From a virus (Duplodnaviria; Heunggongvirae; Uroviricota; Caudoviricetes), in IMG/VR virus record IMGVR_UViG_3300043467_001216: 64,000 nucleotides of DNA; one strand, given 5' to 3'. Positions within the stretch are counted from its first letter, which is position 1; each line of letters starts with the position of its first letter. Position numbers and translations under genes: made by a program. Under the pieces are notes generated by a model. It saw nothing but the letters and a program-made list of their open reading frames with translations. It was not told the origin of the DNA and made no database searches. Below are positions 992 through 61,296 of this stretch, one piece after another.

Positions 992-1606
992 ATGAAAAAA
1001 TATGGGTTGATGGTAGACATTATTGAATATAAAAATTTTAAATCGTTAAGTGAGAATACTGATAAAAAACAAATCATATTAACTCACACTTCAAGGTATA
1101 TTAACGATTATCTACAATCATTAAAATATAGACATAATGGGGATTATACTAAAATCCCCAATTATGTTATTGGTCGGGATGGTAAAATTCTTCAATTATT
1201 AAACAATGAAGAATGTTCTCAAATATTTAAAAACCCTGACATAGATAATAAATCAATTGTAATTTCATTAGAAAATTTAGGGTGGGTTCAAAAAGAACCC
1301 TTAACAAACCATTACGTTAACTGGATTGGTGATATTTATAATGGAGAGGTGTTTGAGAGAAAATGGAGAGATTACTATTTTTGGCAACCATACACTGATG
1401 GACAGATTAATTCATTAGTGTCTTTGTGTAAAAAAATATTTGGTGAAACCAAGATTGAATTTCAATTCATCGGTCATAATACAAAAATAACTGATTTTCA
1501 TAAATATGAGGGGTTATTAACAAGAAGTAATTACGATGTTTCATTTACAGATGTTAGTCCAGCCTTTAATTTTGAAGATTTTATAAAAAAAATAGAAAAT
1601 GGGTAA
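992..1606 (+). CDS. putative N-acetylmuramoyl-L-alanine amidase (Amidase_2/PGRP-like)
   Basis: Loose match to the PGRP/amidase-2 pattern (ILTHTS ... NYVIGRDGKILQLL ... SIVISLENLGW). Weak, by eye only. Confidence 0.35.
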   Translation: MKKYGLMVDIIEYKNFKSLSENTDKKQIILTHTSRYINDYLQSLKYRHNGDYTKIPNYVIGRDGKILQLLNNEECSQIFKNPDIDNKSIVISLENLGWVQKEPLTNHYVNWIGDIYNGEVFERKWRDYYFWQPYTDGQINSLVSLCKKIFGETKIEFQFIGHNTKITDFHKYEGLLTRSNYDVSFTDVSPAFNFEDFIKKIENG

Positions 1607-7284: not shown

Positions 7285-8208
7285 ATGCAAACAAATTATT
7301 ACGACGTACTTGGAGTTAAAGAAAACTCAGACCAAGACACGATTAAAAAAGCTTATAGGTCTTTGGCGAAAAAACATCATCCAGATAAAGGTGGTAATGA
7401 TGAGATGTTTAAGAAAGTTTCTGAAGCTTATGATGTTTTAGGGGATGAAAATAAACGAAGACAATATGATACCCAAAAACAAAACCCATTTCATAATGCA
7501 AGAGGTGGTGGGAATGGATTTAATCCATTTGATGAAATGTTCAATATGTTTAATGGTGGTCGACAAAGACAGAGAACTGTTCCTGATAAAATAATTGATA
7601 TTTTAATAACACCTGTAGAATCCTATAATGCGGTTGATAAACATATTAAATATCAAAGAAAACATATGTGTGTTGATTGTCACGGTAATGGGGGTGATAG
7701 ACAACACTGTGGACATTGTAATGGTACTGGTGTGATAACACAACGAATTGGTACGGGAATGTTTATTCAAATGGTTCAATCGCATTGTAATGTTTGTAAT
7801 GGTGTTGGTTATACATATACTAGAGTTTGTGGGACTTGTAAAGGTTCTTGTACTACTGAAAAAATGGACAGTATTAGTGTTAAATTACCTCACGGAATTG
7901 ATGACGGTCAATTTTTGAAAGTTCAAGGGAGAGGTGATTTTAGTAATGGTATTTATGGTAATTTAATTATTAGAATTAAAGTTAAAAATGATAGTAATTT
8001 TGAGAAATTTGGGGATGATTTAATTTATAATAAATTTTTGAACTTAGATGAATTAAAAGTGGATTCGTTTGTAGTCCCACATCCTTCAGGTGACTTATCA
8101 ATAAAAATACCACCAGTATTTGATTCATCAATACCTTTAAGAGTTAAATCTAAAGGTTATAATAATGGTGAGTTGTATATTAAATTATATGTAAAGTTCA
8201 CACGTTAA
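7285..8208 (+). CDS. DnaJ-like chaperone (J domain plus four CxxCxGxG zinc-finger repeats)
   Basis: N-terminal J domain YYDVLGV...HPDK with the HPD motif. Four repeats: [35 protein letters not shown]. Confidence 0.85.
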
Positions 8209-8504: not shown

Positions 8505-9344
8505 ATGTTATCTTATATTGGTGGTAAAAGTAAAATTGGTAAATGGATAGTTCCATTCATACCTAAAGACATTGAAACGTATGTCGAACCATTTAGTGGT
8601 ATGTATTGGGTTTTCTTCAATATGGATTTGAAAGAGTATCCTAACCTAAAGAAAGTTGTTTACAACGACTTTAACCCACTAAATTATAACCTATTCAAGT
8701 GTGTTCAGAACCCCCAAGAGTTGTTGAAGGCAATCAATTCAATTGAGTGTCAACAATTCGGAGTTGAGGTAACACCACCACACTTAAAAGAACAATTTAT
8801 CAGCTTTCAGGCTGAAATTTTTAAGGAAGGTTTCAGCGTAGAACCTGGTGATTATGTGGTCGCGGCTAAGTATGTGTATGTGTTGACTCAGGTGTTCTCA
8901 GGTTCAAAACCTGAAACCTCATCATATATTGACTTGAAAGGTAAATACAAATCAAAGTATCTAACATTTAGAGATAAGTTAAGTAAACCTGATTGGGTAG
9001 AACATTTCTTAAAGATAACTCACGTTGAGAATATGGACTTTGCTGATGTAATAACTAAGTATGATGGTGAGAAAAGTTATTTCTATACTGACCCGCCATA
9101 TTGGAAGACTGAGAATTACTATTCAAATCACGACTTCGATAGAAACGACCACGAGAGATTGGCAAATACACTAAAAGGTATTCAAGGTAAGTTCTCATTA
9201 TCTTATTATGATTTTGAAATATTATCTGAGTGGTTTCCAAAAAATGAGTATATTTGGGAGAGTAAACTATTCGCCAAAGCGGCAGCAGCTAAAAAAGGTA
9301 AAACACAAACTATGGGTGAAGAGTTATTAATTATGAATTATTAA
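8505..9344 (+). CDS. dam: DNA adenine methyltransferase, Dam/D12 class
   Basis: N-terminal YIGGK motif and the DPPY catalytic motif (YTDPPYW). Confidence 0.8.
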   Translation: MLSYIGGKSKIGKWIVPFIPKDIETYVEPFSGMYWVFFNMDLKEYPNLKKVVYNDFNPLNYNLFKCVQNPQELLKAINSIECQQFGVEVTPPHLKEQFISFQAEIFKEGFSVEPGDYVVAAKYVYVLTQVFSGSKPETSSYIDLKGKYKSKYLTFRDKLSKPDWVEHFLKITHVENMDFADVITKYDGEKSYFYTDPPYWKTENYYSNHDFDRNDHERLANTLKGIQGKFSLSYYDFEILSEWFPKNEYIWESKLFAKAAAAKKGKTQTMGEELLIMNY

Positions 9345-18870: not shown

Positions 18871-20751
18871 ATGGCTAATCAAAAAGTCCCCCAATTACCC
18901 GTATTAACCGCTATCACAGGTAGTGATTTATTTTACGTTGTTGACGTTAGTGATATAACGGATGACCCAACGGGTAGTTCCAAACAGATTACAAGAGACG
19001 AAATATTAACAAGTGTTAATCAAATAGATTTTAACTTAACTGCCGTAACAACACACGAGGAAGGTCGAGTTTCTTGGAATGATGATATTAAATCATTAGA
19101 AATTGATACTGAAAACCCTGAAGTTCAAGTCCAAGTAGGACACGAAATGGTTATTAGAGTTAACAATCAAACAGGTTCTATTTTAACTAAAGGGACTGTT
19201 GTGTATATCAACGGTGCTCAAGGTCAAAGACCTACAGTGACTAAGGCGGATTATAGTGCTGATACGTCATCAGCGTCAGTTATTGGTTTAGTTGCAGCTG
19301 ACATAAATAATGGTGATAATGGTTATGTTATCACATCAGGAATTCTTGAAGGTGTCAACACAATTGATTATACGGCAGGAACATCATTATATTTGTTCAC
19401 AGGTGGGACGTATTCCTCAAATAAACCGCAAGCCCCTGACCACGATGTTCGTATTGGTAAAGTGGTTGTGTCAAACGCAACTACGGGTTCTATATATGTT
19501 AATGTTCAGAATGGTTATGAACTAGATGAATTGCACGACGTTAGAATCACAAGTGTGTCTGAGAATGATGTCTTGGTTCGTAGTACCTATAACGGTTCAC
19601 CTGTTTGGGTGAATACTAAAACAATTTCAGGTCTTACATATGTGCAGGCGACAACAATATCTGCAACGACATATCAAAATTTACCACCTGACTTATGGAC
19701 TCAGAATGGTAGTAGTATATACTATAATGGTGGGAATGTTGGTATTGGTCAAAGTAACCCAACTAGAAAGTTTGAGGTTGTAGATGGTGCTAGTTTAGCT
19801 TATTTTAACTTAACTGGTACAAGTGGACCAGCAGCTGTTATTAGTACTACAGACCTTACAAAATTAACTAGATTTATTGCAACTGATGGGACTAATTCAA
19901 TAAATATTGGTATTAGAACATCTGGTGAAACTGATAATCCTACTGTTGGTGGACAAGGTGATGCATTTATTTATGTTAATGCAAGTGCTAAGGGTTTAAG
20001 TATTGTTAATGCACCTTTTACAGGTATTAATAATGATTATATTAGATTATATGCGGGTTTACTTGCGACTCAAGGTATATCACATTTACACGTGCAAGGT
20101 TCTGGAACTACTAAAGGGTTTATCGGAATAAATAATGAAAATCCTATTGCACGACTACATGTAAGTGGTGATACACTCATAGATGGTGTTTTATCAGCGA
20201 CAACAATATCAGCAACAACCGCATCAATATCAGGTTCAGGTCAAAATGTTTTAACTGTTACAGGTTCAGGTAATAGTACCTCATCACCAATATTTAAAGT
20301 TATTGGTTCACAAGGAGAATTGTTTAGTGTTACTGATTCATTAACAGGTTTATTACAAAGTGTTAATAATATCTCAGGTTTACCAATTTGGCAAGTATAT
20401 TCTGATAATACCATATTAATGGGAACGTATTTAGCACCTTCGTTAAACACGACCGTTAGGGTATCATTAACTGCTGGAACTAATACTGTCTATTCAATAC
20501 CGACAAGTGCCTATACAGGTGGTTTCTTTGATTATACTGTGATTAGTAGTGGAGGTGCGGGAGCTAGAGCGGGAACTGTTATGTCTATATGGAGTGGTAC
20601 TACGGCTGAATACACTGATGTATCAACTAATGATATTGGTAATACATCGGGGATATCATTTTCAGTTGCGGTTTCCGGTGGTAATTCAGTGTTAAGTTGT
20701 TCCGCAACTACTACGGGTTGGATATTAAAAACTATAGTTAGAAGTATATGA
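18871..20751 (+). CDS. putative tail fibre / receptor-binding structural protein
   Basis: 626 aa, Ser/Thr/Gly/Asn-rich and beta-rich. Repeated TISATT(YQNLP) motifs are shared with ORF 22515..22985. Confidence 0.55.
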   Translation: MANQKVPQLPVLTAITGSDLFYVVDVSDITDDPTGSSKQITRDEILTSVNQIDFNLTAVTTHEEGRVSWNDDIKSLEIDTENPEVQVQVGHEMVIRVNNQTGSILTKGTVVYINGAQGQRPTVTKADYSADTSSASVIGLVAADINNGDNGYVITSGILEGVNTIDYTAGTSLYLFTGGTYSSNKPQAPDHDVRIGKVVVSNATTGSIYVNVQNGYELDELHDVRITSVSENDVLVRSTYNGSPVWVNTKTISGLTYVQATTISATTYQNLPPDLWTQNGSSIYYNGGNVGIGQSNPTRKFEVVDGASLAYFNLTGTSGPAAVISTTDLTKLTRFIATDGTNSINIGIRTSGETDNPTVGGQGDAFIYVNASAKGLSIVNAPFTGINNDYIRLYAGLLATQGISHLHVQGSGTTKGFIGINNENPIARLHVSGDTLIDGVLSATTISATTASISGSGQNVLTVTGSGNSTSSPIFKVIGSQGELFSVTDSLTGLLQSVNNISGLPIWQVYSDNTILMGTYLAPSLNTTVRVSLTAGTNTVYSIPTSAYTGGFFDYTVISSGGAGARAGTVMSIWSGTTAEYTDVSTNDIGNTSGISFSVAVSGGNSVLSCSATTTGWILKTIVRSI

Positions 20752-21476
20752 GTACACATTATAAACCAAGGATTATTACTGATAATTTAATTTATTATGT
20801 TGACGGTGCTAATACCTCATCATACCCTGGAACAGGAACTATTTGTGATGATTTATCACGTCGTCAATTATTAGAACTGTCTTTAGTTAATGGGGTTGCA
20901 TTTGAAAATAATAATGGTGGTGTTTTTACATTTGATGGTGTTGATGACTTAATGTTATCTGATGTTACGATGAACGGTAAAATGACTAGTGGTATGACAT
21001 TTGATGTTTGGTTTAAACGAACTCAAGATATGAACGCATTTAATATGGTGGTTTCAAATCCGGTTCCTTATATTGCGTTTAGAGGTTCGGGTGCGGGTGT
21101 TAACTCTCAATATTTTTTATTTTCATTTTTAACTAGAATATCTTCAACTAATACGCAACGTTATTTATATTCTAATAATACGTTTAGTAATAATGTTTGG
21201 TATAATGTTGTTTGTACGTTATCTCAAAATACGACAACACAAGTGGTTGATGCTAAAATGTATGTTAATGGTGAATTAAACAATACTATAAGTGTTGGTT
21301 CGGCAACTGATAGTGTGTATCAACCCACTGCTGGGACTTTTTTTAGATTGGCGAATTACGCTCCAGCGGCATATCCGTTTAAAGGTAATATTTCGTCAGT
21401 TAAAATGTATGATAAATTACTAACGTCTGATGAAATTTTACAAAATTATAATACATTAAAAAATAGATTTAATTAA
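20748..21476 (+). CDS. LamG/concanavalin-like domain protein (paralog A)
   Basis: Paralogous to 21502..22185, with a shared C-terminal ..DEI(L/N)QNYN(T/A)(L/T)K.R.. and FDG(V/I)DD motifs. Composition suggests a lectin-like beta-sandwich. Confidence 0.45.
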   Translation: MSTHYKPRIITDNLIYYVDGANTSSYPGTGTICDDLSRRQLLELSLVNGVAFENNNGGVFTFDGVDDLMLSDVTMNGKMTSGMTFDVWFKRTQDMNAFNMVVSNPVPYIAFRGSGAGVNSQYFLFSFLTRISSTNTQRYLYSNNTFSNNVWYNVVCTLSQNTTTQVVDAKMYVNGELNNTISVGSATDSVYQPTAGTFFRLANYAPAAYPFKGNISSVKMYDKLLTSDEILQNYNTLKNRFN

Positions 21477-21501
21477 ATATAAAAAAAATAGTTAGAATTG
21501 T

Positions 21502-22185
21502 ATGAGTTCATTTTCAGGTCCAAAAATAGATATTAATAACCTTGTGTTGTATTTAGATGCGGGAAACTCTGATTCTTATGTTAGTGGTTCTACCACATGG
21601 TATGATTTAAGTGGTAATAATTATAATGGTACGTTAATTAATGGTACGGGTTTTAGTAGTGAAAAAAATGGTTGTATGACATTTGATGGTATTGACGATA
21701 TGGTTAGAACAAATTTTCAAACAATAACTGTAAATAGTAGTTTTGAGATATGGGCTAATAGAACTGAGAGTGTCAACGCATATAATATGATGGCTGGTAT
21801 GTATCTACCTTATTTTGCTATGAATAGTGGTAATACTTTACACTTTTCTAATTCAATAGGTGGTGTTCAAAGAAGTGCTTTTTCTTCACCATCAGGAACT
21901 TTAATGGATAATACTTGGTATTGTTTTCATTTTGTAAATTCATATGATGGTGTTAATACAACAATGAAATCGTATATTAACGGCACTTTAGTTCGTAGTA
22001 TTACTAATACAGGTCAAACGATTACAACAACTTTTCTTCCTCTAGTTATTGGTGGTTGGAGGTCTAATTTACCAACTGATTATCCATTTAAAGGTAAAAT
22101 ATCAATTGTTAAGGTTTATAATAAAGAATTAACACAAGATGAAATTAATCAAAACTATAATGCAACAAAAGGTAGATATTTATAA
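21502..22185 (+). CDS. LamG/concanavalin-like domain protein (paralog B)
   Basis: See paralog A. Confidence 0.45.
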   Translation: MSSFSGPKIDINNLVLYLDAGNSDSYVSGSTTWYDLSGNNYNGTLINGTGFSSEKNGCMTFDGIDDMVRTNFQTITVNSSFEIWANRTESVNAYNMMAGMYLPYFAMNSGNTLHFSNSIGGVQRSAFSSPSGTLMDNTWYCFHFVNSYDGVNTTMKSYINGTLVRSITNTGQTITTTFLPLVIGGWRSNLPTDYPFKGKISIVKVYNKELTQDEINQNYNATKGRYL

Positions 22186-22187
22186 TT

Positions 22188-22457
22188 ATGGAAACAATAT
22201 TACAAGATTACGAAAACAGAAAATTTATGATATTTAACGTATCTGAATTGGGCTTGATTGATTTTACACAAGTTTATCAAACATCAATTGATACTGTTAG
22301 AAAATCAGTTGATGGAACTAAAACATTGGTTAAATGGGATTCGGATGGAATACCATCATCAGTTAATCAACTAACAACCAAAGAAGGTCCATATACTTAT
22401 GATGAAATAATCGTTATTTTAAATACTTCTGAATGGAGTGGGACAATACCTGAATAA
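22188..22457 (+). CDS. hypothetical protein
   Basis: ORF. Confidence 0.4.
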   Translation: METILQDYENRKFMIFNVSELGLIDFTQVYQTSIDTVRKSVDGTKTLVKWDSDGIPSSVNQLTTKEGPYTYDEIIVILNTSEWSGTIPE

Positions 22458-22514
22458 ATTAATAATTGATGGTATTTATACATAAATAAACCTGGATAGG
22501 GAAAGGTAAAAATT

Positions 22515-22985
22515 ATGTCAAACGAATTTAATATAAAGAATGGGTTTATCTCAAACTCAGATTCTAGAGTGATTGGTGGTTTCACCGCTAACACAATATC
22601 AGCAACAACTTATCAAAACTTACCTGTTGACCCCAATTATTATGTAACTGCGTTCACGTATAGTAATAACGTATTTACGGTTAAGCAAACAGGACAATCT
22701 GATTTAACGGCAACAATAAATTCTGTAACAGGGTGGACTGTTAATGGTGTTTTAACTGTTACGGGTGATACATCATTACAGGGTGTTACTGCAAATACCA
22801 TATCGGCAACAACAATATCAGGTGGGACTATGGTTATAACAACAACACCAACTACTGATAATACGTTAACTCAAGTATTATCAAGAGACCCAGTAACGGG
22901 AACTGTCGAATTAGTCGATACAACATCATTCCCATTCAACTATGGGTTGGCAAACGCAATAATGACAGGAACTTTTTTAACATAA
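22515..22985 (+). CDS. small tail-fibre-like protein
   Basis: Contains TISATTYQNLPVD, identical to the motif in 18871..20751, plus TISATTISGG. Confidence 0.45.
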   Translation: MSNEFNIKNGFISNSDSRVIGGFTANTISATTYQNLPVDPNYYVTAFTYSNNVFTVKQTGQSDLTATINSVTGWTVNGVLTVTGDTSLQGVTANTISATTISGGTMVITTTPTTDNTLTQVLSRDPVTGTVELVDTTSFPFNYGLANAIMTGTFLT

Positions 22986-23011
22986 AAATAAAAATAAAAA
23001 TAAAGTAATAT

Positions 23012-23434
23012 ATGGCAAATACATCATTAAATACACAACCAATTTATACGGCATCCGCTGATACTCAATGGATTGGAGGGGCTTTAACTGCGAACACAAC
23101 TAAAGACTTAACATCAGGAACTGCTTATTTGGCGTTTACTGCGTCAGCGAATGGGGGGTATGTTCAAAGATTAAGATTAAGACCATTAGGGACTAACGTC
23201 GCATCATTGGCTAGAATATTTATTAATAATGGTGATGTTACAGGAACAACCGCGAATAATATTCTTTGGGATGAGATATCATTACCGGCAACAACAGTTT
23301 CTGAGACATCGGCTTTACCTACTTATGAAATTCCATTAAATTTTGCATTACCCGCAGGTTACAGATTGTTTGTGACTATTGCTACGGGTGTGGCCGCAGG
23401 TTTTGCGATAACAGTTATAGGTGGAAAATATTAA
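23012..23434 (+). CDS. hypothetical structural protein
   Basis: ORF in the structural block. Confidence 0.4.
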   Translation: MANTSLNTQPIYTASADTQWIGGALTANTTKDLTSGTAYLAFTASANGGYVQRLRLRPLGTNVASLARIFINNGDVTGTTANNILWDEISLPATTVSETSALPTYEIPLNFALPAGYRLFVTIATGVAAGFAITVIGGKY

Positions 23435-23437
23435 GAT

Positions 23438-23616
23438 ATGAACGAGTATATATTGTGGGAGTTTGAATACGGATACACAGGTCAAGTGTATCAGGAAATC
23501 AATAACGGACAAGTTATTAGATATTGTGATTTGGATGGGAATACTTTAACACTTGAAGGTGCTTACGGGTATAATTTAATAAATGTAACACCAGAAAGAC
23601 CAAGTTGGGCGTTATA
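23438..23616 (+). CDS. small hypothetical protein (59 aa, not in the ORF track)
   Basis: ATG at 23438, stop at 23614-23616. Fills the gap before the Gly-rich genes. Confidence 0.3.
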
Positions 23617-23618
23617 AT

Positions 23619-24539
23619 ATGATAGATACTTTTAACATAAATGACGGTAGTTTAAACAACCAAGTGTTCAACTATAATGGGAATACAGGGTGGCAAGTAT
23701 GGAACAAACCACCTAAATGTAATTTAGTGAATTTCTTTTTAGTTGGTGGTGGTGCCGGTGGTCAAGGTGGTATTATTAATTCTGCCGCCAATCGTAATGG
23801 AGGTGCGGGAGGTGGTTCTGCCGCCTTTTCATATATAACCGTTCCAGCATTTGCAATTCCCGATACTTTATATATATTAGTGGCAAGTGGTGGAACAGGA
23901 GGTGCGTCAAGTGGTGGTGCCGGTGGTCAAGGAAGTCTTAGTTATGTCTGTTCTGTACCTGATACGTCAACTGTTAATAATATATTAATGAGGAGTGGTT
24001 CGGCGAATGCGGGTGTTACAACAACAACAACTGCGGGTGCGGCAATTACTGTTGCGGATATTTTATTAGCTGAGGCTGCGTTTATTTCAGGATATGCGGG
24101 TCAAACAGGTGGTGCGGGTGGTGTAACAAGTACTCCTGCGGTTGATATAACACCAACAGGTATTCCATTCACATCAGGTGCGGGTGGTGCTGGATGTGGT
24201 TCGACAGGAACGTTAGGTGTTGCGGGGGATATCGTAGGTATTTTAGATTTCCCAATTATCTCAGGTGGTACAAATACATCATCGGCAGGTGCGACTGCGG
24301 GTTCGGGAAATAACGGATTTTCGACAAGAGAAAGTTTTACTAGCCAAAATTATAAATATCCTATGTTCTTTACAGGAGGTGCCGGTGGTGGTGCAGCCTC
24401 TAACGCAACAGGTGTTGGAGGACGTGGTGGTGATGGAGCCTATGGTTGTGGTGGAGGAGGTGGTGGTGCCGGTGGAAACACAACTGCGGGACGTGGTGGT
24501 GATGGTGGTCACGGATTAGTTATAATTACAGTTACATAA
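23619..24539 (+). CDS. glycine-rich protein, tandem paralog 1
   Basis: Conserved N-terminus MIDTFNINDGS..QVF...WNKP..C..V.F.L.GGG and conserved C-terminus AYGCGGGGGGAG..GGDG..VIIT. The Gly-rich middle is highly variable. Confidence 0.55.
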   Translation: MIDTFNINDGSLNNQVFNYNGNTGWQVWNKPPKCNLVNFFLVGGGAGGQGGIINSAANRNGGAGGGSAAFSYITVPAFAIPDTLYILVASGGTGGASSGGAGGQGSLSYVCSVPDTSTVNNILMRSGSANAGVTTTTTAGAAITVADILLAEAAFISGYAGQTGGAGGVTSTPAVDITPTGIPFTSGAGGAGCGSTGTLGVAGDIVGILDFPIISGGTNTSSAGATAGSGNNGFSTRESFTSQNYKYPMFFTGGAGGGAASNATGVGGRGGDGAYGCGGGGGGAGGNTTAGRGGDGGHGLVIITVT

Positions 24540-24542
24540 AAT

Positions 24543-25487
24543 ATGATAGATACTTTTCACATATCAGATGGTAGTGTCAATAGACAAGTGTTCTATGCGA
24601 CAGGACCGAATACCTTCCAAACTTGGAATAAACCCCAAAACTGTAAATTCGTTTACTTCGTATTAATCGGAGGTGGCGGAGGTGGCGGAGGTGGTCAAAG
24701 TGGTGGAACAGGAACCTCTCGTAGAGGTGGTGGTTCAGGTGGTTCAGGTGGATTAACTAAAGGTATGTTTCCCTCTTCAATTATTCCTGATAGATTATAT
24801 ATTCAAGTTGGTTCAGGTGGAACTGCTGGTGTTGGTGGTACGACTAACAGTGATGGTGGTACTGCTGGTATATCATATGTTATGGTTACACCTGACACTA
24901 CTGAAACTGCACAAAATATACTACTACAAAGTAGTTTGGCGGCTGCGGGTGGTGGTCGTTCAGGTTTAAATGGTGGTGCTCTTGGTGCTGCTGCAACGGC
25001 TTGGGTATTCACTAATAATATTTTTTATAAATTTGGGTTGGTTGATACTTATGCGGGTCAAGCGGGTGTTTTAGGTCAAACAACGGCATTACCAACTAAC
25101 TTAACAATTAGTGGTATTGTAAGTGGTGGTGGTCCAGGTGCGGGTCAAAACGGTGCAACTGCACAAGAGGGTGGTTCAGTTGTTGGTGGTGGGTCAATAC
25201 CTACAATGACAGGAGGACCAGCGGGTGGTTCAGCGACATCAACAACACCCGGAGGTAATGGTAGTGGTGGATATATGACATTTACCCCTAACACACTTGG
25301 ATACACAACAGAACCATTGATATTTATCGGTGGTGCTGGTGGTGGTTCATCAGATGGTGGACCCGGAGGTTCAGGAGCTGGCGGAGCCTATGGTTGTGGT
25401 GGTGGAGGAGGTGGAGCCGGAATAACTAACCAAGGTGGTAATGGTGGTAAAGGTGGTGACGGAATAGTCATAATAACGTGGTGGTAA
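24543..25487 (+). CDS. glycine-rich protein, tandem paralog 2
   Basis: Same architecture as paralog 1. Ends GGDGIVIITWW. Confidence 0.55.
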   Translation: MIDTFHISDGSVNRQVFYATGPNTFQTWNKPQNCKFVYFVLIGGGGGGGGGQSGGTGTSRRGGGSGGSGGLTKGMFPSSIIPDRLYIQVGSGGTAGVGGTTNSDGGTAGISYVMVTPDTTETAQNILLQSSLAAAGGGRSGLNGGALGAAATAWVFTNNIFYKFGLVDTYAGQAGVLGQTTALPTNLTISGIVSGGGPGAGQNGATAQEGGSVVGGGSIPTMTGGPAGGSATSTTPGGNGSGGYMTFTPNTLGYTTEPLIFIGGAGGGSSDGGPGGSGAGGAYGCGGGGGGAGITNQGGNGGKGGDGIVIITWW

Positions 25488-25496
25488 TATTATAAA

Positions 25497-26459
25497 ATGA
25501 TAGATACATTCAATTTACCTGGAAAGGAAAGGTATACACAAATTTTTACAGTAAACTCAAGTGGGTCAACAGGTTGGGAAACTTGGAATAAACCATCAAA
25601 CATTTCTTACATCCATATTTTATGTATTGGTGGTGGAGGAGGTGGAGGAGGGGCTCGTGGTAGTTCGCTGAATACCGCAACAGGAGGAGGTGGTGGAGGT
25701 TCTGCAGCTCACTCAATTGGATTATTTCCTGCGGTTTTATTACCTGATACATTATTCGTTCAGGTGGGTAAAGGAGGTGCTAGTGGTGTTGGTGGTGCTA
25801 AGGGTGTTAACGGAACTGATGGTGGTTCGGGAGAACATTCTTATGTGTCAGTTATACCATCAACGGGAACTACTGCGGTATTGATGAAAAACGGTACTGC
25901 GGGTGCTGATGGTGGTAATGGTGGACAAAGTTCAGTTCAAGGTGCTGCGGGAACTGCGGGAACAACTTGGACTTATAACACAACATTTATATTTCCCCAA
26001 TTAGGACAGATATCACCATTTGCTGGTCAAAATGGTGGTATCGGTGGTTCAACAGGTGGTGGTAATGGTGGTTCGATAACTATTACAGGTCCAACAACAG
26101 GTGGTGGTGGTGGAGGTGGAACAACAAGTGGTGGCTCATCAGGTGGTGGTGGTTCAATTACGGGTGTTGGGATAATACCAACTATTGTTGGTGGAACTGC
26201 GAATTCATTAACGGCTAGTAATGGTGCGGGTGGTTATGGTATGAATTTATTAACAACTGAATCAAGTTCACCAAGTCCTTTATTTTTTACGGGAGCTGCG
26301 GGTGGTGGTGGTGCTGGTCCAAATGCTGATAGAGAAGGTGGTGACGGAGGTCACGCTGCTTACGGTTCAGGAGGTGGAGGTGGAGGTGCATCTTATAATG
26401 GTAAAGGTGGTGACGGAGGTAAAGGTGGTGATGGTGTTGTAATTATTACTTGTTGGTAG
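25497..26459 (+). CDS. glycine-rich protein, tandem paralog 3
   Basis: Same architecture. Ends GGDGVVIITCW. Confidence 0.55.
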   Translation: MIDTFNLPGKERYTQIFTVNSSGSTGWETWNKPSNISYIHILCIGGGGGGGGARGSSLNTATGGGGGGSAAHSIGLFPAVLLPDTLFVQVGKGGASGVGGAKGVNGTDGGSGEHSYVSVIPSTGTTAVLMKNGTAGADGGNGGQSSVQGAAGTAGTTWTYNTTFIFPQLGQISPFAGQNGGIGGSTGGGNGGSITITGPTTGGGGGGGTTSGGSSGGGGSITGVGIIPTIVGGTANSLTASNGAGGYGMNLLTTESSSPSPLFFTGAAGGGGAGPNADREGGDGGHAAYGSGGGGGGASYNGKGGDGGKGGDGVVIITCW

Positions 26460-26493: not shown

Positions 26494-27357
26494 ATGGAAA
26501 ATTATATAGGAAAAATTATAAATGGTGATTGTGTTGATGTTATGTCAGAAATGCCAATAAACTCAATTGACTTAATTGTAACGTCACCCCCATACGGAGT
26601 TGGGATTGCCTATGATGTTCACGATGATGATATGTATATTGATGAATATTTGAAATTTACAACCAAATGGTTAACACAAGCATATCAGATATTAAAAGAT
26701 GATGGAAGGATTGCGATAAACATTCCTTATGAAATTAATAGACAGGACAAAGGTGGAAGAATTTTCTTTTGTTCTGAGGTTTATCAGGTAATGAAAAGAA
26801 TTGGATTTAAATTCTTTGGTATTGTTGACCTTGAAGAAGATTCTCCTCATCGTAGTAAAACTACGGCTTGGGGTAGTTGGATGTCACCTTCAAGTCCTTA
26901 CATATATAATCCAAAAGAATGTGTTATATTAGCCTACAAACACAAACATATTAAAACAGTTAAAGGTGAACCACAATGGAAAGGAATGCCAACTGAGATT
27001 GAACAAGAAGATGGGACAGTTAAGAAAAAAGTTGTCTATGATGAAATGGATAAGAAAGAGTTTATGGAATTGGTGTTTGGTCAGTGGAAATATTTTGCTG
27101 ATACTAAATCGTTAACAAAAGCGACTTTCTCTATGGATATCCCAACTAAGGCGATTAAAATATTGTCATATAAGAATGACGTAATATTGGACCCATTTGC
27201 GGGTTCAGGAACAAGTTTGGTTGCTGCTGAAACATTGGATAGACGATGGGTGGGTATTGAATTATCACCAAATTATGCTGAGATAGCTTGGAAACGAGTC
27301 CAAGGATTTGTGGACCAAAAAAAACAACAAGAATTAGAATTCGAAAAGGGGGAATAA
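26494..27357 (+). CDS. DNA amino-methyltransferase, beta-class (N6-adenine or N4-cytosine)
   Basis: Motif IV SPPY (DLIVTSPPYGV) precedes motif I DPFAGSGTS, the beta-class order. Confidence 0.8.
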   Translation: MENYIGKIINGDCVDVMSEMPINSIDLIVTSPPYGVGIAYDVHDDDMYIDEYLKFTTKWLTQAYQILKDDGRIAINIPYEINRQDKGGRIFFCSEVYQVMKRIGFKFFGIVDLEEDSPHRSKTTAWGSWMSPSSPYIYNPKECVILAYKHKHIKTVKGEPQWKGMPTEIEQEDGTVKKKVVYDEMDKKEFMELVFGQWKYFADTKSLTKATFSMDIPTKAIKILSYKNDVILDPFAGSGTSLVAAETLDRRWVGIELSPNYAEIAWKRVQGFVDQKKQQELEFEKGE

Positions 27358-28477: not shown

Positions 28478-29922
28478 TGAAAAAAATAGTAAGATTAAAT
28501 GAGAATCAAATGACCGATGTCATTAAACGAATGATAATGGAGTCAGGGATTCGTGATATTAATAAAATCGCTGAGAGATATCGAAAAGCTAAAATTTATT
28601 TTCATCAAGATTTGGATGGTGTAACAACTGCGATTGCGATGAAAGAATATTTAAAACAATATGGGATTGAAACCGTTGATTGTGAGGTAATACAATACGG
28701 TGATAAAGAATGGTCGATTAAAAAACCTGAAGGTAGTGGTGATGTTATGCCTGTATTGGTTGACTTTGCTCACGGTAAACCAATGTTTGTTATTCACACA
28801 GACCACCACGACACACAAGCGGGTGTTGAATCAGGGACTGCAACAAACTTTAAATCATCACGTTCAAATGTTGAAACTATATCACAATCAATATCACCAA
28901 AAGAATTATTCCCAAGTGATGATTTGTTATTAATCTCGACGGTTGACTCGGCGAATTTTGCACCAAACGATATCACAGTTGATGAGGTTAATAATTACAT
29001 CTTCAACTTAGATAAAGAAAAATCAGTTCCAAAAAACAAAATGGCTCTTGGTTTGACGATTAATAAATTATTATTGGCGTTTAAAAACAAACCTGATTTC
29101 TTAGAAGAATTGGTTATGGAATCAACACCATCTTTACTTAATATCTTAACTAACATTAAGAGAATTATGAAAGAGAAGGGGTTTGCGTCAGTTGATGTTC
29201 TACAACAAAATAGAGACAACTACGTTCAATCAATGAAGAATCATCCTAACGTTAAAGTTATGGATAATATCATTGTTCAATACGGTGGTGGTAATATGAT
29301 GAAACCTGGTTCTTATGATAGGTATACACCATTTAAAAACAATCCTGAAGCTGACTTTATAGTTATTGCTTGGCCGTTGGGGTTAGTTCAAGCGTCTTGT
29401 AATCCATTCAAAAAAGAGAGAGCATTGAAAGGTGTTAACTTAGGTGAGGTTAAAGATGAGGTGTTATCTAAATGGGAAACACAATTAAAACAAAAAGAAA
29501 TTCCATTATCTACAATCAAATGGGTATCTGAGAACAAATTAAATACTGAGTCAGTTGGTTTTACGTTTAAAGATTTTGAAGCATTGTATGGTGAAAAATT
29601 TAGTAAGATTAACAACGGACCTGAATTATTAAACATTATTAGTAATATAATGCAAAGACATTATAATAGTTTAAGTGATAAACAAAAATCTATTATGGAG
29701 AAAGTAACTGTTAGTGCTTGGGATATAATTCAAGCTAATAGTGGTGGACACAAATGTATTACGAATATATCAGGTCTTAGTTATTTAGGTAAGAACCCTC
29801 AGAAATTATCAGGAGGTGGAAGTTACCAAAAAAGTGAAGATGATTCACCATCGGTTAAGTTTACAAAAATGATTCAAAACGAATTTGTAAGAGTATTACA
29901 ACAAAAAATACAAGAAGGTTAA
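28477..29922 (+). CDS. hypothetical protein (481 aa)
   Basis: ORF abutting the upstream stop. Confidence 0.5.
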   Translation: MKKIVRLNENQMTDVIKRMIMESGIRDINKIAERYRKAKIYFHQDLDGVTTAIAMKEYLKQYGIETVDCEVIQYGDKEWSIKKPEGSGDVMPVLVDFAHGKPMFVIHTDHHDTQAGVESGTATNFKSSRSNVETISQSISPKELFPSDDLLLISTVDSANFAPNDITVDEVNNYIFNLDKEKSVPKNKMALGLTINKLLLAFKNKPDFLEELVMESTPSLLNILTNIKRIMKEKGFASVDVLQQNRDNYVQSMKNHPNVKVMDNIIVQYGGGNMMKPGSYDRYTPFKNNPEADFIVIAWPLGLVQASCNPFKKERALKGVNLGEVKDEVLSKWETQLKQKEIPLSTIKWVSENKLNTESVGFTFKDFEALYGEKFSKINNGPELLNIISNIMQRHYNSLSDKQKSIMEKVTVSAWDIIQANSGGHKCITNISGLSYLGKNPQKLSGGGSYQKSEDDSPSVKFTKMIQNEFVRVLQQKIQEG

Positions 29923-30260
29923 AATTCTATTCGGTCGTCAAGTTTAATACCTAAACGTTTGCATGTACCACCTTTAACTTCTAAAATCATATCACCTTCA
30001 CCACAATAGTTTCCACAATCTTTTGATTTACAAGGGGGACAATTGTGGTGGATGTTTGATATCATACCATCTTTAATAAAGATTATATCCAAAGGTATCA
30101 CACAATTTTTCATCCAAAAACAATGGTCGGCATCATCCATTAAAAATAACATACCTTGATTTGGTGATGTAAACTTTTTTCCCATCATACCGTTTGATTT
30201 ATCCTTGGGGGTAATCATAGTTTTTACTACAAACTTGTTATTATTAATTCGAATATTCAT
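29919..30260 (-). CDS. DUF192-like protein with a Cys-rich C-terminal extension
   Basis: GMMGKKF...MLFLM...IPLDIIFI resembles DUF192 (COG1430). The C-terminus has CPPCKSKDCGNYCGEGD. Confidence 0.45.
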   Translation of the reverse strand: MNIRINNNKFVVKTMITPKDKSNGMMGKKFTSPNQGMLFLMDDADHCFWMKNCVIPLDIIFIKDGMISNIHHNCPPCKSKDCGNYCGEGDMILEVKGGTCKRLGIKLDDRIEF

Positions 30261-30307
30261 ATCTATAAATATTGTGAGGTTAAATAAAATTAACTATATT
30301 TGTTACT

Positions 30308-30742
30308 ATGAAATCGAGAGTGAATATAGTTAACAAGAAAGTTAAGTTTGAATACTTTTTCGTTGAGACATTTGTCGTTGGGGTTAAACTACAGGGTTCT
30401 GAGGTTAAGTCAATCAGTGACTCAAAAGTTTCAATGACTGATACGTATTGTTACTTTAAGAATGGTGAGTTATATGTTAAAGGGTTAAACATTGCTAGTT
30501 CTAATGTGTCATACGCTCACGAACCTATGAGGGAACGTAAATTGTTAATGAAGAAGAAAGAATTGCGTAAACTTGAGAACGAATTAATTAATGGGTTAAC
30601 GATTGTTCCGTATAGATTGTATCGTAATGAGACCGGGTTGATTAAGATGGAGATTGTATTAGCCAAAGGTAAGAAGTTGTGGGATAAGAGAGATTCGATT
30701 AAAGAACGAGATATAAATAGAGAATTAAAACGAGGTCTATGA
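30308..30742 (+). CDS. smpB: SsrA-binding protein SmpB
   Basis: Aligns along its whole length with bacterial SmpB: NKK.KFEYF..E....G..L.GSEVKS, NI....A...P.R.RKLL....EL.KL, LT.VP..LY......K.E..LAKGKK..DKR.SIKERD. 144 aa. Confidence 0.85.
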   Translation: MKSRVNIVNKKVKFEYFFVETFVVGVKLQGSEVKSISDSKVSMTDTYCYFKNGELYVKGLNIASSNVSYAHEPMRERKLLMKKKELRKLENELINGLTIVPYRLYRNETGLIKMEIVLAKGKKLWDKRDSIKERDINRELKRGL

Positions 30743-30978
30743 CAAAGGTATTAAAAGGTAAAATAGTCCACCAAGGTGGTGAACTAATGGTGGAACATTC
30801 ACCAAAGAAAATATTTGCAGAATTAAAAGGGGAGTCAATTGAAAAAGTCTTTTACAAGTATGATATTCTTAACCCCTTCACTGAACACAATTTAAAGGAG
30901 GGTGATGAGGTTGAATTTGTGTTTGAATTATATATTGATAATGGAGGTTCATTTAAATTTTGTGAAATAGTAAAATAG
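30739..30978 (+). CDS. hypothetical protein
   Basis: ORF overlapping the smpB stop. Confidence 0.4.
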   Translation: MTKVLKGKIVHQGGELMVEHSPKKIFAELKGESIEKVFYKYDILNPFTEHNLKEGDEVEFVFELYIDNGGSFKFCEIVK

Positions 30979-31936: not shown

Positions 31937-32170
31937 ATGAAAAGTTGGTTAAATTTAAGTAGTAATGGTTGGTTGGTATTGGCCTCTACGATTGTCTACA
32001 TCAGTGTCCTTACAATAATATTTGAATATGTTATTAGTAGAGAATTTCCGATGTTCTTACAAATGATATCAGTGTTTTTTGGGTTATTTTACACTGTGTC
32101 TCAATTAAAAATAATATCCAAATATGTTATAAATTTATTTAATTTTAAAGAAAAAGAAGAAGAAGTATGA
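31937..32170 (+). CDS. small membrane protein
   Basis: Two hydrophobic helices. Confidence 0.4.
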   Translation: MKSWLNLSSNGWLVLASTIVYISVLTIIFEYVISREFPMFLQMISVFFGLFYTVSQLKIISKYVINLFNFKEKEEEV

Positions 32171-33069
32171 TTACAATTATTTTATTAGTATTGTCATTGG
32201 TTGTTGCAGGTGTAATGATTTTTAGAGGTGTTGCGAATGATGACACTGTGAGTTTAAGAAACGGGATTATCGTTGGTGTATTGGGGATTGTTATCTCATT
32301 AATTCAACCATTCTCAACAGAACGAGTGGATACAGGTAACGTTGGTATCAAAGTTAATTTAACAGGTGATGCTCGTGGTGTATCGAAGTATGAGTACAAA
32401 ACAGGTTGGGTAGTTTATAACTCTTGGACTGAAACAATGTATGAGTTCCCTGTGTTCCAACAACACATTGAGTATGGTGACCAAATGGTGATTACTAAGG
32501 GTGGATTTACCACAACTATTAACCCTACGTTTAACTACAAATTGAAATCTAGTACAGTTGGGGATATGTTCCAAAACTTGAGATTACCGATTAAAGAAGT
32601 GGAGCAAGGATGGTTGAAAAATGCAATCGTTGGAGCGGTGAATGACGTGGCGAATACTTGGTCTGTCGATAGTATCTTTAACCACCGTGAAAATTTCGAG
32701 TCTAATATCGTAGTCGAATGTAATAAACGATTGATTAAATGGTTTGACGTATCTCAGTTGAGAACTAACATTACACCTCCTGAGGCATTACAAGAATCAA
32801 TTATCGCAAAAACAAGAGCCATCCAACAAGCGGAAGCATCTAAACAACAAGCAATTGCTGCTCAGGCTGATGGTCAACGTAAAGTTGCGGTTGCAAAGGC
32901 TGACTCCGCAGAGACTGTTATCAACGCATCCGCTAAGGCGAGAGCGATGGATTTAACACAACAAAAGTTAACACCTTTGTATGTTGAATATAAGAAAATT
33001 GAGAAATGGGATGGTCAATTACCTTCAACAGTTGCGGGTGGAACAGGAACATTCTTGAATATAAAATAA
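32167..33069 (+). CDS. SPFH/band-7 (prohibitin-like) membrane protein
   Basis: N-terminal TM helix. C-terminal Ala/Gln-rich coiled region (AIQQAEASKQQAIAAQADGQRKVAVAKAD) typical of the SPFH family. Confidence 0.5.
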   Translation: MITIILLVLSLVVAGVMIFRGVANDDTVSLRNGIIVGVLGIVISLIQPFSTERVDTGNVGIKVNLTGDARGVSKYEYKTGWVVYNSWTETMYEFPVFQQHIEYGDQMVITKGGFTTTINPTFNYKLKSSTVGDMFQNLRLPIKEVEQGWLKNAIVGAVNDVANTWSVDSIFNHRENFESNIVVECNKRLIKWFDVSQLRTNITPPEALQESIIAKTRAIQQAEASKQQAIAAQADGQRKVAVAKADSAETVINASAKARAMDLTQQKLTPLYVEYKKIEKWDGQLPSTVAGGTGTFLNIK

Positions 33070-52676: not shown

Positions 52677-53063
52677 ATGAGTAGAGTTAATTTGATTGCA
52701 TCAACAGGGTTAATCTTCAATGAAGATAAGTCAATGGTATTAGGTGTGTCACGTAAAGACGATAAAACTAAATTTGGTTTACCTGGTGGTAAGGTTGATG
52801 AAGGTGAAACAATGTATGAAGCATTGGTTAGAGAGTTGAAAGAAGAAACAGGATTGGATGTTATTAAGGCGGTCCCGATATATTTCAGAGAAGATGGTAT
52901 ATACGTGACCGTGGTTTATTTGATTAGTGAATATTCAGGTGATATATATACAGAAGAGGCCGGTGTCGTTAAATGGGTTACATTTGAAGAATTGAAACAC
53001 GGGGCGTTCTCAGAATACAATACAATGTTGGAGGAACATTTGAAATTTATAAATTATATATGA
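52677..53063 (+). CDS. Nudix hydrolase
   Basis: Nudix box GLPGGKVDEGETMYEALVRELKEETGL (Gx5Ex7REUxEExGU). Confidence 0.75.
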   Translation: MSRVNLIASTGLIFNEDKSMVLGVSRKDDKTKFGLPGGKVDEGETMYEALVRELKEETGLDVIKAVPIYFREDGIYVTVVYLISEYSGDIYTEEAGVVKWVTFEELKHGAFSEYNTMLEEHLKFINYI

Positions 53064-55535: not shown

Positions 55536-55958
55536 ATGGATAAAAAGATTGGATTTACGTGTTCCTGTTTTGATTTATTTCATGCGGGACATATTATGAT
55601 GCTTAAAGAAGCTAAAAGTGTTTGTGATTACTTAATAGTTGGTTTACAGAGTGACCCCACGTTAGACAGACCTGAGAAGAATAAACCTGTTCAAAGTATA
55701 GTTGAAAGATTTATTCAATTGGATGCTTGTAAGTATGTTGATGAGATTGTGGTTTATGCGACAGAAAAAGATTTAATGGACGTATTGTTATCGTATCCAA
55801 TCAATGTTAGGATTGTTGGGGATGAATACGCTGAAGTTAATTTTACAGGTAAAAACTTACAACATATTGAAATTTATTATAATACAAGACGACATTCATT
55901 TTCAACAACAGAATTAAGAAAACGAGTAATTGAATTATCAAATGGACAAAGTAAGTGA
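55536..55958 (+). CDS. HxGH-motif nucleotidyltransferase (cytidylyltransferase/NMNAT-like)
   Basis: GFTCSCFDLFHAGHIMMLKEAK matches the (T/H)xGH nucleotidyltransferase motif of TagD/RfaE-II/NadM-like enzymes. Confidence 0.6.
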   Translation: MDKKIGFTCSCFDLFHAGHIMMLKEAKSVCDYLIVGLQSDPTLDRPEKNKPVQSIVERFIQLDACKYVDEIVVYATEKDLMDVLLSYPINVRIVGDEYAEVNFTGKNLQHIEIYYNTRRHSFSTTELRKRVIELSNGQSK

Positions 55959-56482: not shown

Positions 56483-57196
56483 ATGAAAAAGAAAATTGTT
56501 GTATTCACAGGTGCTGGTGTTTCAAGAGAAAGTGGTGTCTTGACATTTAGAGATAGTGTGGATGGGTTATGGGAGAATCATAGTATTGATGATGTTTGTA
56601 CACCTTCAGGATGGAAAAAAGACCGTGAGAAGGTTTTGAATTTTTATAACGATAGACGAAGACAATTACCTACGGTTGAACCTAACTCAGCCCACACAGG
56701 TTTGGTTAAGTTAGAGGACAAATATGACGTAACAATCGTTACCCAAAATGTTGATGACCTACACGAAAGAGCGGGTTCATCTAAGATATTACATTTACAC
56801 GGTGAGTTGACTAAAGCCAGAGGTGCGATGTATAGTCATAAGACAAGTCCATTGGATAATATCGTGGTGATTGGTTATAATGATATTAACATTGGTGATA
56901 AGTGTGAGATAACAGGTTCACAGTTGAGACCCCACATTGTTTGGTTTGAAGAGATGCCATTCAACGTCGAGGAAAGTTATGACGCAATAACCGAATCTGA
57001 TGTGTTAATCATTATCGGAACTAGTTTGATGATTGGTTACACATTAAATCTATTATCAAGTGTTAGTGATGAGTGTAAGATTTATTATATTGACCCCCAA
57101 CCAAGTAGGTATTTGGACCATTTAGGTAAAGATATTACTTACATTGAGAAACCGGCAACGGAAGGTGTTGAATTAATTTTAAATGAATTGTTATGA
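56483..57196 (+). CDS. Sir2-family (sirtuin-like) NAD-dependent protein
   Basis: VVFTGAGVSRESGVLTFRD, QNVDDLHERAG and HLHG Sir2 blocks. No obvious Zn-ribbon Cys tetrad. Confidence 0.75.
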   Translation: MKKKIVVFTGAGVSRESGVLTFRDSVDGLWENHSIDDVCTPSGWKKDREKVLNFYNDRRRQLPTVEPNSAHTGLVKLEDKYDVTIVTQNVDDLHERAGSSKILHLHGELTKARGAMYSHKTSPLDNIVVIGYNDINIGDKCEITGSQLRPHIVWFEEMPFNVEESYDAITESDVLIIIGTSLMIGYTLNLLSSVSDECKIYYIDPQPSRYLDHLGKDITYIEKPATEGVELILNELL

Positions 57197-59925: not shown

Positions 59926-60012
59926 TAGTCAGGTAATGCGTAATGGGAAAACGGTTATCTCATCCAACTAAAAAGGGTTGCATCGTTGTGGGTTCGAGTC
60001 CCACCCTGGCTA
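59926..60012 (+). tRNA. tRNA-like element 0 (T-arm GTGGGTTCGAGTCCCAC; 7-bp acceptor AGTCAGG/CCTGGCT with one G-U)
   Basis: Perfect T-arm and pairing termini. I could not fold the D and anticodon arms canonically by eye. 87 nt. Confidence 0.4.
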
Positions 60013-60271: not shown

Positions 60272-60371
60272 TAGTCAGGTGGCGTAATGGTAAAAGCGTT
60301 GGTCAGTGGGTTTAAACACCTAACGGTAAAAATGGGTACCAGATATACAGGTTCGAATCCTGTCCTGACTA
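60272..60371 (+). tRNA. tRNA-like element 1 (Leu-type D-arm; shared termini AGTCAGGTGGCG ... ACAGGTTCGAATCCTGTCCTGACT); 100 nt
   Basis: Acceptor AGTCAGG/CCTGACT (7 bp). T-arm ACAGG-TTCGAAT-CCTGT. D-arm GCG-TAATGGTAAAAG-CGT. The interior is longer than a class II tRNA. Confidence 0.45.
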
Positions 60372-60441
60372 CTGACAATAAAACTTTGGGGTCAGGGTTT
60401 TGTTGGCACTGAAAGGTGTGTGTTTTCAACGGTTCGAGTCC

Positions 60442-60553
60442 GAGTCAGGTGGCGGAATTGGTAGACGCTAACGGTGGTAAGTGTGATAGTCAGAGCTCGG
60501 GAACTCCTATCAAAAAGTTTGGTTCACACATACAGGTTCAAGTCCTGTCCTGA
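60442..60553 (+). tRNA. tRNA-like element 2 (D-arm GGTGGCGGAATTGGTAGACGC identical to canonical tRNA-Leu); 112 nt
   Basis: Same termini as element 1. The 63-nt region between the D- and T-arms includes a long hairpin GTGTGA...TCACAC. No canonical anticodon arm found by eye. Confidence 0.45.
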
Positions 60554-60569
60554 CTACTAAAAATAAGAT

Positions 60570-61232: not shown

Positions 61233-61296
61233 CTACAAAAAATAACGAAGGTATTGTTTAATTAAATAAAAAAACATATCTTTGAAATGTTAATAT

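Follow-up and report, generated by a model that had tools for sequence, protein, structure and literature searches.

A phage SmpB of apparent Bacteroidota ancestry at a locus without a neighbouring tmRNA

SmpB and transfer-messenger RNA (tmRNA) have been described among the translation genes of huge phages, and comparable gene sets have been noted on large putative plasmids (Al-Shayeb et al. 2020, Nature 578:425, PMC7162821). An SsrA-binding protein is annotated in at least eight supplementary GenBank files of that study, mostly with best hits in Bacteroidetes (Cecembia, Sphingobacterium, Fibrisoma and Fulvivirga are named). The RNA is also known from phages: about 2.3% of isolate phage genomes carry a tmRNA (PMC9004378), with OM43 phage Melnitz and phage G as examples of phage-encoded ssrA (PMC9004378, PMC12484599), and the roles suggested for it are upkeep of the hijacked translation machinery or re-targeted tagging (PMC9004378). 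Here we analyze an smpB gene carried by a 64-kb stretch of viral DNA (IMG/VR record IMGVR_UViG_3300043467_001216), which we call the window. Both the tmRNA phages and the window phage invest in trans-translation. However, Melnitz and phage G carry the RNA, and a phage SmpB is reported in neither of the two papers, whereas the window encodes the protein without the RNA. We conclude that this gene probably encodes a working SmpB, which a lineage of very large phages would have acquired long ago from a Bacteroidota-type host and kept since.

In INPHARED, 67 records match the window SmpB, including all Lak megaphage records listed; the identity is 44–47% to the 15 matched Lak megaphage records and 46% to a 735-kb phage. 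The matching PHROGs family is phrog_6791 (E 8.3e-40), which is labelled 'unknown function' though it is plainly SmpB, a gap that conceals the gene in annotated phage genomes. Since SmpB has been reported for huge phages since 2020, a viral SmpB is not a new phenomenon, and the preliminary description of this locus overstated the case in calling it unusual.

The SmpBs of the huge phages (Lak of Prevotella; LR756501-04 and LR745206) resemble the window protein in being full-length, Bacteroidota-like and encoded by very large phages. The six huge-phage loci fetched resemble the window also in having no tmRNA in the 20 kb on either side of smpB. In contrast to the SmpBs of Lak and LR756501/504, which fall among bacterial sequences, the window SmpB belongs to a separate virus-only clade. 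Bacterial SmpBs, especially those of Bacteroidota, share length class, fold, tail motif and 48–59% identity with the window protein, which differs in being virus-encoded and in forming part of its own clade. Homologous SmpBs (58–65% identical) also occur in sister modules on low-GC viral contigs (loci L013, L015-L018, L310, L178 and L447); unlike these, the window has no adjacent tmRNA, GOLLD RNA or tRNA beside smpB. What is new here is incremental: the virus-only clade, the sister smpB-tmRNA module (in some loci with GOLLD and a tRNA), and the empty tmRNA positions of the window.

Identity, fold and tail of the window SmpB

The gene is placed as follows.

30308..30742, + strand: smpB, 144 aa, ATG start; SsrA-binding protein with a beta-barrel core and a C-terminal helix and tail (about residues 121–144)

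This open reading frame (ORF) is a true full-length SmpB with an intact tail. It matches PF01668 over profile positions 2–139 of 143 with 151.9 bits (E 1.4e-44; cut-off 27), a search whose failure the preliminary description had named as evidence against its assignment. Both NCBIfam equivalog models agree, with 155.1 bits for TIGR00086 (cut-off 119.1) and 150.3 for NF003843 (cut-off 130). The top sequence match in the PDB is Thermotoga maritima SmpB (7ljp; E 2e-33, residues 5–141), followed by the SmpBs of Thermus, Aquifex, Mycobacterium and E. coli. The structure predicted by AlphaFold from a 12-sequence alignment contains a beta-barrel, two helices and a C-terminal helix at residues 124–143, at moderate confidence (mean predicted local distance difference test score 70.6, with residues 1–13 and 67–74 scoring low). 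A Foldseek comparison of this model with the PDB returns 19 significant matches, all 19 of which are SmpB (best E 1.4e-11; template-modelling scores normalised by target length, 0.57–0.79). The oligonucleotide-binding beta-barrel core with flanking helices is thus present in both the predicted structure and its structural matches. Sequence profiles, PDB sequence matches and fold together bear out the end-to-end correspondence with SmpB that was claimed before.

The basic tail reads GKKLWDKRDSIKERDINRELKRGL and contains G121-K122-K123-L-W-D126-K127-R128-D-S-I-K-E-R-D, in line with the KGKK..DKR.SIKERD tail noted in the preliminary description: the GKK..DKR..IKERD elements are intact, and G121, K122, D126, K127 and R128 do not vary across the 12 clade members aligned. 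Beyond DKR the phage protein has 16 residues, compared with a median of 18 in 79 Bacteroidota SmpBs. Work in E. coli and Thermus has established that the GKK hinge and the DKR motif are required after tmRNA binding, when the tail fills the empty mRNA channel.

A working SmpB is the most economical reading, since the canonical job calls for what is seen here: a core that binds RNA, a tail that enters the ribosome, and selection of the strength found on the gene (below). By analogy with the family, the phage protein would bind the tRNA-like domain of alanyl-tmRNA, and where a ribosome has stalled at the 3´ end of a broken mRNA, the complex would move into its empty A site together with EF-Tu. 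The C-terminal tail would occupy the vacant mRNA channel, translation would switch to the tag frame of the tmRNA, and the ribosome would be freed. The benefit to the phage may be that ribosome rescue continues during a prolonged infection, while host mRNAs are being destroyed and host gene expression, that of host smpB included, is shut down.

The same protein could in principle act as a decoy or antagonist that sequesters host tmRNA or blocks stalled ribosomes and so shuts down host tagging. Lacking a cognate RNA in the window, the protein might compete in this manner, a point of principle in favour of which no analysis result speaks. However, a decoy would need the RNA-binding core only, whereas the ribosome-entering tail is of normal length and its motif is invariant; the whole protein is under strong purifying selection; and sister phages pair a homologous SmpB with a functional-looking tmRNA. 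We therefore judge a decoy role unlikely, because the conserved tail is not needed by a decoy, and the full conservation of this tail also disfavours the earlier idea that the phage titrates host tmRNA.

Phage context and ancestry of the gene

The G+C content of the window is 27–36%, except for a single 46% block at 24–26 kb. The long ORFs run almost without exception on the + strand, and most of the scanned proteins have no Pfam match. Several phages have annotated tail-fibre proteins homologous to a 626-aa ORF (18871-20751, + strand), and ORFs across 20748-26459 match virion-structural, tail-fibre-assembly and minor-tail PHROGs; these homologues sit 4–11 kb upstream of smpB. A 481-aa DHH-like protein encoded just upstream of the DUF192 gene and smpB has relatives, within the phage collection, in only two uncultured phages of 635 and 642 kb. 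Thirty IMG/VR contigs carry relatives of the window SmpB, including contigs with SmpBs 95–98% identical to it. When the 22 kb around smpB are compared with the phage collection by Megablast, the sole match is 134 nt long, to LR745206.1.

The window is part of a considerably larger genome. An SmpB identical to that of the window is indexed on contigs of 0.2–1 Mb. The gene at window positions 992-1606 is located about 236.7 kb along a 250,222-bp JGI contig, where the 10 kb upstream of it encode a sigma factor, an SbcCD-like pair and other genes, and the gene at 61546-62076 is found at one end of a 195,267-bp contig. These placements indicate a genome of at least about 300 kb and put it among the huge or jumbo phages (genome >200 kb). 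The sequence read comprises the 64-kb window, which is about one fifth of the genome, together with 10 kb upstream and about 0.5 kb downstream.

Could the window instead be a fragment of a bacterial chromosome or plasmid, or host smpB picked up at the edge of a prophage? Capsid, portal and terminase genes were not identified in the window; some of the INPHARED matches look like host flanks, for example the smpB of Staphylococcus phage StauST398-5 at bases 46-459; and large putative plasmids have similar gene sets (Al-Shayeb et al., PMC7162821). On the other hand, the tail-fibre and virion-structural homologues lie close by, most scanned ORFs lack a Pfam family and run on nearly a single strand, near-identical contigs are found in IMG/VR, and none of the species-representative bacterial SmpBs exceeds 59% identity. 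No housekeeping gene was found near smpB or in the end-gene contexts read, and the genes called up to 10 kb on either side of smpB encode no integrase domain, as the preliminary description had also held. Together with the kinship to phages of 635–642 kb, this makes the window phage DNA and a bacterial-chromosome origin, which the preliminary description had named as grounds for refutation, very unlikely.

Within the structural region (23619-26459, + strand), three tandem paralogous ORFs of 306–320 aa give weak matches to tail-fibre-assembly or minor-tail PHROGs, and two of them give faint or weak matches to Pfam Gly_rich_2. They coincide with the sole G+C-rich block of the window (46%, compared with about 31%).

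To place the protein, we compared it with viral, metagenomic and cellular homologues. Of 5373 homologues (E<=1e-10), the best 120 are all metagenomic and 62–98% identical to the window SmpB. The smpB contexts of L033 (74% identical, on a 132-kb contig) and L035 (65–67%) are phage-like one-strand arrays of ORFans, one with T4-type RNA ligase and T5orf172 genes and the other with NAD-salvage genes; L033 shares with the window a Band_7 gene and a 79-aa ORF in the vicinity of smpB. In contrast, no SmpB more than 59% identical is found in 185,579 bacterial and archaeal species, scanned as one genome per species. The best 80 species-representative SmpBs come nearly all from Bacteroidota (Xanthocytophaga, Cyclobacteriaceae, Spirosomataceae, Chitinophagales and Saprospirales), and the exceptions among the top cellular matches are a small contig assigned to a Limnohabitans bin and an unnamed bin. 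The closest cellular SmpBs (Bacteroidota: Cytophagales and Chitinophagales) are 48–59% identical to that of the window.

In a neighbour-joining tree of 107 dereplicated sequences, the window SmpB lies within a 44-member clade that contains no cellular sequences and is sister to a Bacteroidota group, with a bootstrap value of only 54 for this 144-residue protein and an E. coli outgroup sequence entered by hand. The Lak and LR756501/504 SmpBs nest among bacterial sequences in the same tree, and those of LR745206 and LR756502 fall outside. The phylogeny proposed in the preliminary description thus places the protein in a divergent viral clade whose nearest cellular kin are Bacteroidota. The ratio of nonsynonymous to synonymous substitution rates (dN/dS) of smpB is 0.027–0.070 relative to five close relatives with unsaturated dS. 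As judged from these comparisons, smpB is apparently an old, maintained phage gene of Bacteroidota ancestry, neither a recent capture nor a decaying fragment. The virus-only clade and the purifying selection also agree with the previous statement that the gene is not a captured attachment-site fragment.

tmRNAs of related phages and empty positions in the window

In the sister subclade, smpB and a canonical one-piece tmRNA are arranged convergently at a spacing of 0.1–0.9 kb. The tmRNAs of L013, L017 and L018 score 65–68 bits with Rfam RF00023 (cut-off 47) and lie 0.1–0.5 kb downstream of smpB; that of L310, a locus reached through an IMG/VR scan for a generic tmRNA 3´ end and subsequent protein comparison of the flanks, scores 105.5 bits and lies 100 nt from smpB. 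A six-sequence profile used with nhmmer added tmRNAs near smpB in L015 and L016, and L178, L447 and L421 also hold both genes. A GOLLD RNA (Rfam >300 bits) is found just upstream of smpB in L013, L017 and L018; in L017 and L018 a tRNA separates the two, whereas in L013 the tRNA lies upstream of GOLLD. The stored stretch of L310 contains only the tmRNA and smpB. The clusters recognized with Rfam are the following.

L013, 9518-11336: smpB-tmRNA cluster
L017, 5288-7178: smpB-tmRNA cluster
L018, 9007-10909: smpB-tmRNA cluster
L310, 6053-6997: smpB-tmRNA cluster

These tmRNAs start with GGG, end with CTCCA, and have the G3:U70 pair. Their tag frames comprise about 21 codons, for example GNVLDKMETLGLVRESEVTVA followed by two stop codons. 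ARAGORN missed the tmRNAs of L013, L015, L016 and L017 (L018 was scanned for tRNAs only), so that phage tmRNAs of this type are probably under-annotated. The SmpBs adjacent to a tmRNA (L013, L178, L162, L447, L017 and L310) share at least 70% mutual identity and are 58–65% identical to the window SmpB, which itself groups with those of L011 (78%), L033 (74%), L012 (69%) and L035 (65–67%).

The tmRNA family extends well beyond the smpB loci. A second IMG/VR scan combined with nhmmer gave at least 96 low-G+C viral loci with near-full-length matches to it; with three tmRNAs from SmpB loci added, the set numbers 99 sequences, which form 71 clusters at 95% identity. Only 7 of the 96 tmRNA loci listed contain smpB within the stored stretch (<=15 kb), three of them being near-identical copies, which indicates that separation of smpB and tmRNA is usual. 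The family is found in contigs of 30–38% G+C (L250-L486, IMG/VR). Many of its tags are unusually long (about 21 residues) with a conserved start, GNVL[DN]KM.. or GNVINKL.., and they finish most often in ..AVA, ..TVA or ..VAA rather than ..LAA. In four loci the tmRNA lies 1.2–2.8 kb downstream of a homologue of the window ORF 22188-22457, in convergent orientation, following a cluster of tail-fibre, Laminin_G_3 and 89-aa genes.

L425, 4822-5233: tmRNA after the tail-fibre/Laminin_G_3/89-aa cluster
L375, 10004-10399: tmRNA after the same cluster
L438, 2716-3111: tmRNA after the same cluster
L400, 4698-5094: tmRNA after the same cluster

The window has this cluster as well (18871-22457), with no tmRNA after it. 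Searches of the whole window bear out the earlier remark that it contains no obvious tmRNA. By default, ARAGORN reports only a tRNA-Thr at 61462-61532, and it finds no tmRNA at the 95% and 90% thresholds; the 6 and 84 calls at the 80% and 70% thresholds are at noise level. The Rfam search, which like the ARAGORN search had been proposed in the preliminary description, covered the tmRNA families, permuted forms included, and GOLLD; it gave no match in the window at the gathering score or at E<=10, only the tRNA model reaching the gathering score. The nhmmer profile of six related phage tmRNAs likewise found nothing in the window at E<=10.

Several observations weigh against the reading as a working phage SmpB. 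Neither the window nor the 10 kb that precede it contain a tmRNA, and both sites at which relatives carry one (beside smpB, and after the tail-fibre/Laminin_G cluster) exist in the window and are empty, which leaves a phage-encoded tmRNA partner unproven here. In the closer relatives L007, L011, L012, L033 and L035, Rfam detects no tmRNA or GOLLD within ±10 kb of smpB. To these points we add the limits of the tree given above and the lack of capsid, portal and terminase genes among those seen in the 64-kb window, so that the designation 'phage' rests on the tail-fibre genes, membership in IMG/VR and the relatives. For L019-L021, which are more distant, Rfam likewise finds neither RNA in the 10 kb on either side of smpB. 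The phage-tmRNA profile has no match in L003-L012, L014 and L033-L035.

Since no tmRNA lies in the 64-kb window, the partner of a working SmpB would be either the tmRNA of the host or a phage tmRNA elsewhere in the genome, and we regard the two as roughly equally probable. With a tmRNA outside the window, possibly at a third location in the remaining four fifths of the genome, the phage would possess a self-contained rescue and tagging system, perhaps with a phage-specific tag. This is a tentative proposal, which we place somewhat below an even chance. It is favoured by the abundance of the related tmRNA family in low-GC viral contigs, by the usual separation of tmRNA and smpB, by the tmRNAs of relatives that share the tail-fibre cluster of the window or the RNA ligase of L033, and by the fact that only 64 kb of a genome of at least about 300 kb were seen. 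The two empty syntenic positions and the negative searches around the smpB genes of the closer relatives, with Rfam as well as with the phage-tmRNA profile, argue against it.

Alternatively, the lineage may have no tmRNA of its own, and its SmpB would load the tmRNA of a Bacteroidota host and sustain the supply of SmpB after host shut-off. The Bacteroidota-like sequence of the protein makes compatibility with host tmRNA plausible, and the absence of a tmRNA from the window, the upstream 10 kb and either syntenic position is consistent with such an arrangement. However, this absence covers about one fifth of the genome, and relatives commonly carry a tmRNA. We hold this account, too, to be possible but not quite an even bet.

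tRNA-like elements and the genes around smpB

The preliminary description had pointed to atypical tRNA-like elements at 59.9–61.5 kb as candidates for a tmRNA-like partner. The elements exist, and five of them lie as follows.

60273-60372, + strand: tRNA-like element
60443-60557, + strand: tRNA-like element
60806-60950, + strand: tRNA-like element
61120-61236, + strand: tRNA-like element
61297-61412, + strand: tRNA-like element

Four of the five pass the Rfam tRNA cut-off with 30–50 bits, and the element at 60806-60950 is called by ARAGORN in intron mode only. The acceptor stem is AGTCAGG/CCTGACT (U3:A70) in four elements and AGATAGG/CCTATCT (A3:U70) in the fifth. All five have the discriminator A73, a tRNA-Leu-like D-arm and the T-arm ACAGGTTCGAATCCTGT with minor variants, and in place of the anticodon arm stand 33–80 nt of unrelated sequence with simple hairpins. 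Two partial tRNA-like pieces (59929-60005 and 60375-60442, + strand) are called by neither ARAGORN nor Rfam; one has the acceptor pairing AGTCAGG/CCTGGCT (U3:G70) and the T-arm GTGGGTTCGAGTCCCAC, and the other is an isolated T-arm-like sequence, ACGGTTCGAGTCCG. We also considered intron-containing tRNAs and rejected them, as the ARAGORN models are forced, with intron sites at 31–36, mismatched anticodon stems and A34 anticodons.

At least 120 IMG/VR contigs contain the T-arm/acceptor module, as many as 7 copies of it being packed into about 3 kb, and at least 140 distinct elements of 70–190 nt are present among the IMG/VR matches listed (loci L130-L249). The acceptor stem and T-arm are nearly constant and the D-arm is mostly tRNA-Leu-like, whereas the insert is hypervariable, although some insert types recur across contigs. 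The elements match no Rfam family other than tRNA, and a literature search on such anticodon-less tRNA-like RNAs gave no relevant match.

Could SmpB work with these RNAs, at 60.3–61.4 kb, as miniature tmRNA-like molecules? They keep the acceptor stem, D-arm and T-arm, and an insert replaces the anticodon arm, and in five relatives they lie 1–4.5 kb from smpB on the same strand. In the window, however, the distance is 29.5 kb, and smpB is present in only two of the fetched element loci (each <=~15 kb). The elements are 100–145 nt long, in contrast to about 260–420 nt for tmRNA. None of the five has the G3:U70 alanine identity pair, and they retain the D-stem, which the tRNA-like domain of tmRNA lacks. 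Neither an mRNA-like tag frame nor pseudoknots are apparent in them. They match no tmRNA model in Rfam at E<=10 and are not called as tmRNA by ARAGORN down to 90%; at 80%, six 'permuted' calls by ARAGORN appear at noise level, and the one that overlaps element B has a nonsense tag running through the T-arm. In L178, finally, such an element stands beside a true tmRNA and smpB, which shows that it does not replace the tmRNA. The failed tmRNA features and this co-occurrence identify the elements as a separate, unexplained RNA family rather than the missing tmRNA, and we consider a role as tmRNA-like partners highly improbable.

A looser version is that the lineage has uncoupled SmpB from the phage tmRNA and that the protein acts on another RNA, for example this family 30 kb downstream, which might be delivered to stalled ribosomes or stabilised by SmpB. 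The data here disfavour this version as well, and we give it little credence.

The immediate surroundings of smpB contain three further features.

29919..30260, − strand: DUF192 gene (PF02643, E 6.8e-26), the divergent upstream neighbour of smpB
30295..30303, + strand: promoter-like motif TATATTTGT, which begins 13 nt ahead of the smpB ATG
30739..30978, + strand: 79-aa ORF, function not assigned; its ATG overlaps the smpB stop codon (ATGA)

The DUF192 gene is divergent from smpB, on the opposite strand, and therefore cannot share an operon with it, which corrects the earlier placement of smpB in an operon with a DUF192-like gene. The 79-aa ORF, which has no Pfam match, is probably co-transcribed with smpB. 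A 79-aa gene occupies the matching position directly 3´ of smpB in L001 and L002, whose SmpBs are identical to that of the window, and lies 3´ of smpB at a somewhat greater distance in L033 (SmpB 74% identical).

The motif is present in 13 copies in the window, compared with 3.3 expected (an about four-fold excess), and 12 of the 13 lie on the + strand, starting at 12021, 19388, 30295, 30982, 31122, 33670, 35948, 36969, 44230, 47045, 54070 and 59538. Comparison with the ORF list reveals that three copies (12021, 30295 and 35948) begin 12–13 nt before an ATG; for those at 12021 and 35948, the ATGs are 12 nt further on, at 12033 and 35960. The −7 promoter box of Bacteroidota has the form TAnnTTTG, and TATATTTGT has this form, which would fit a Bacteroidota host. 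Its position suggests that smpB has its own promoter, with a very short leader or none, and its distribution hints at leaderless or very short-leader mRNAs in the window.

The window also encodes several auxiliary genes (7285-8208, 8505-9344, 26494-27357, 32167-33069, 52677-53063, 55536-55958 and 56483-57196), comprising a full three-domain DnaJ, a Dam-type (D12) methyltransferase, an N6/N4 methyltransferase, a Band_7/SPFH protein, a NUDIX hydrolase, a CTP_transf_like protein (cytidylyl- or nucleotidyltransferase domain) and a SIR2 protein. The NUDIX, CTP_transf_like and SIR2 genes may form an NAD-related set.

The presence of SmpB indicates that very large phages invest in ribosome rescue besides tRNAs and translation factors, as has been known since 2020. 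The window lineage keeps its SmpB although both usual tmRNA positions are empty. If the lineage truly has no tmRNA, nature would have provided a test case for whether a phage gains from extra SmpB alone. The family of tRNA-like elements may be a more original lead than SmpB itself.

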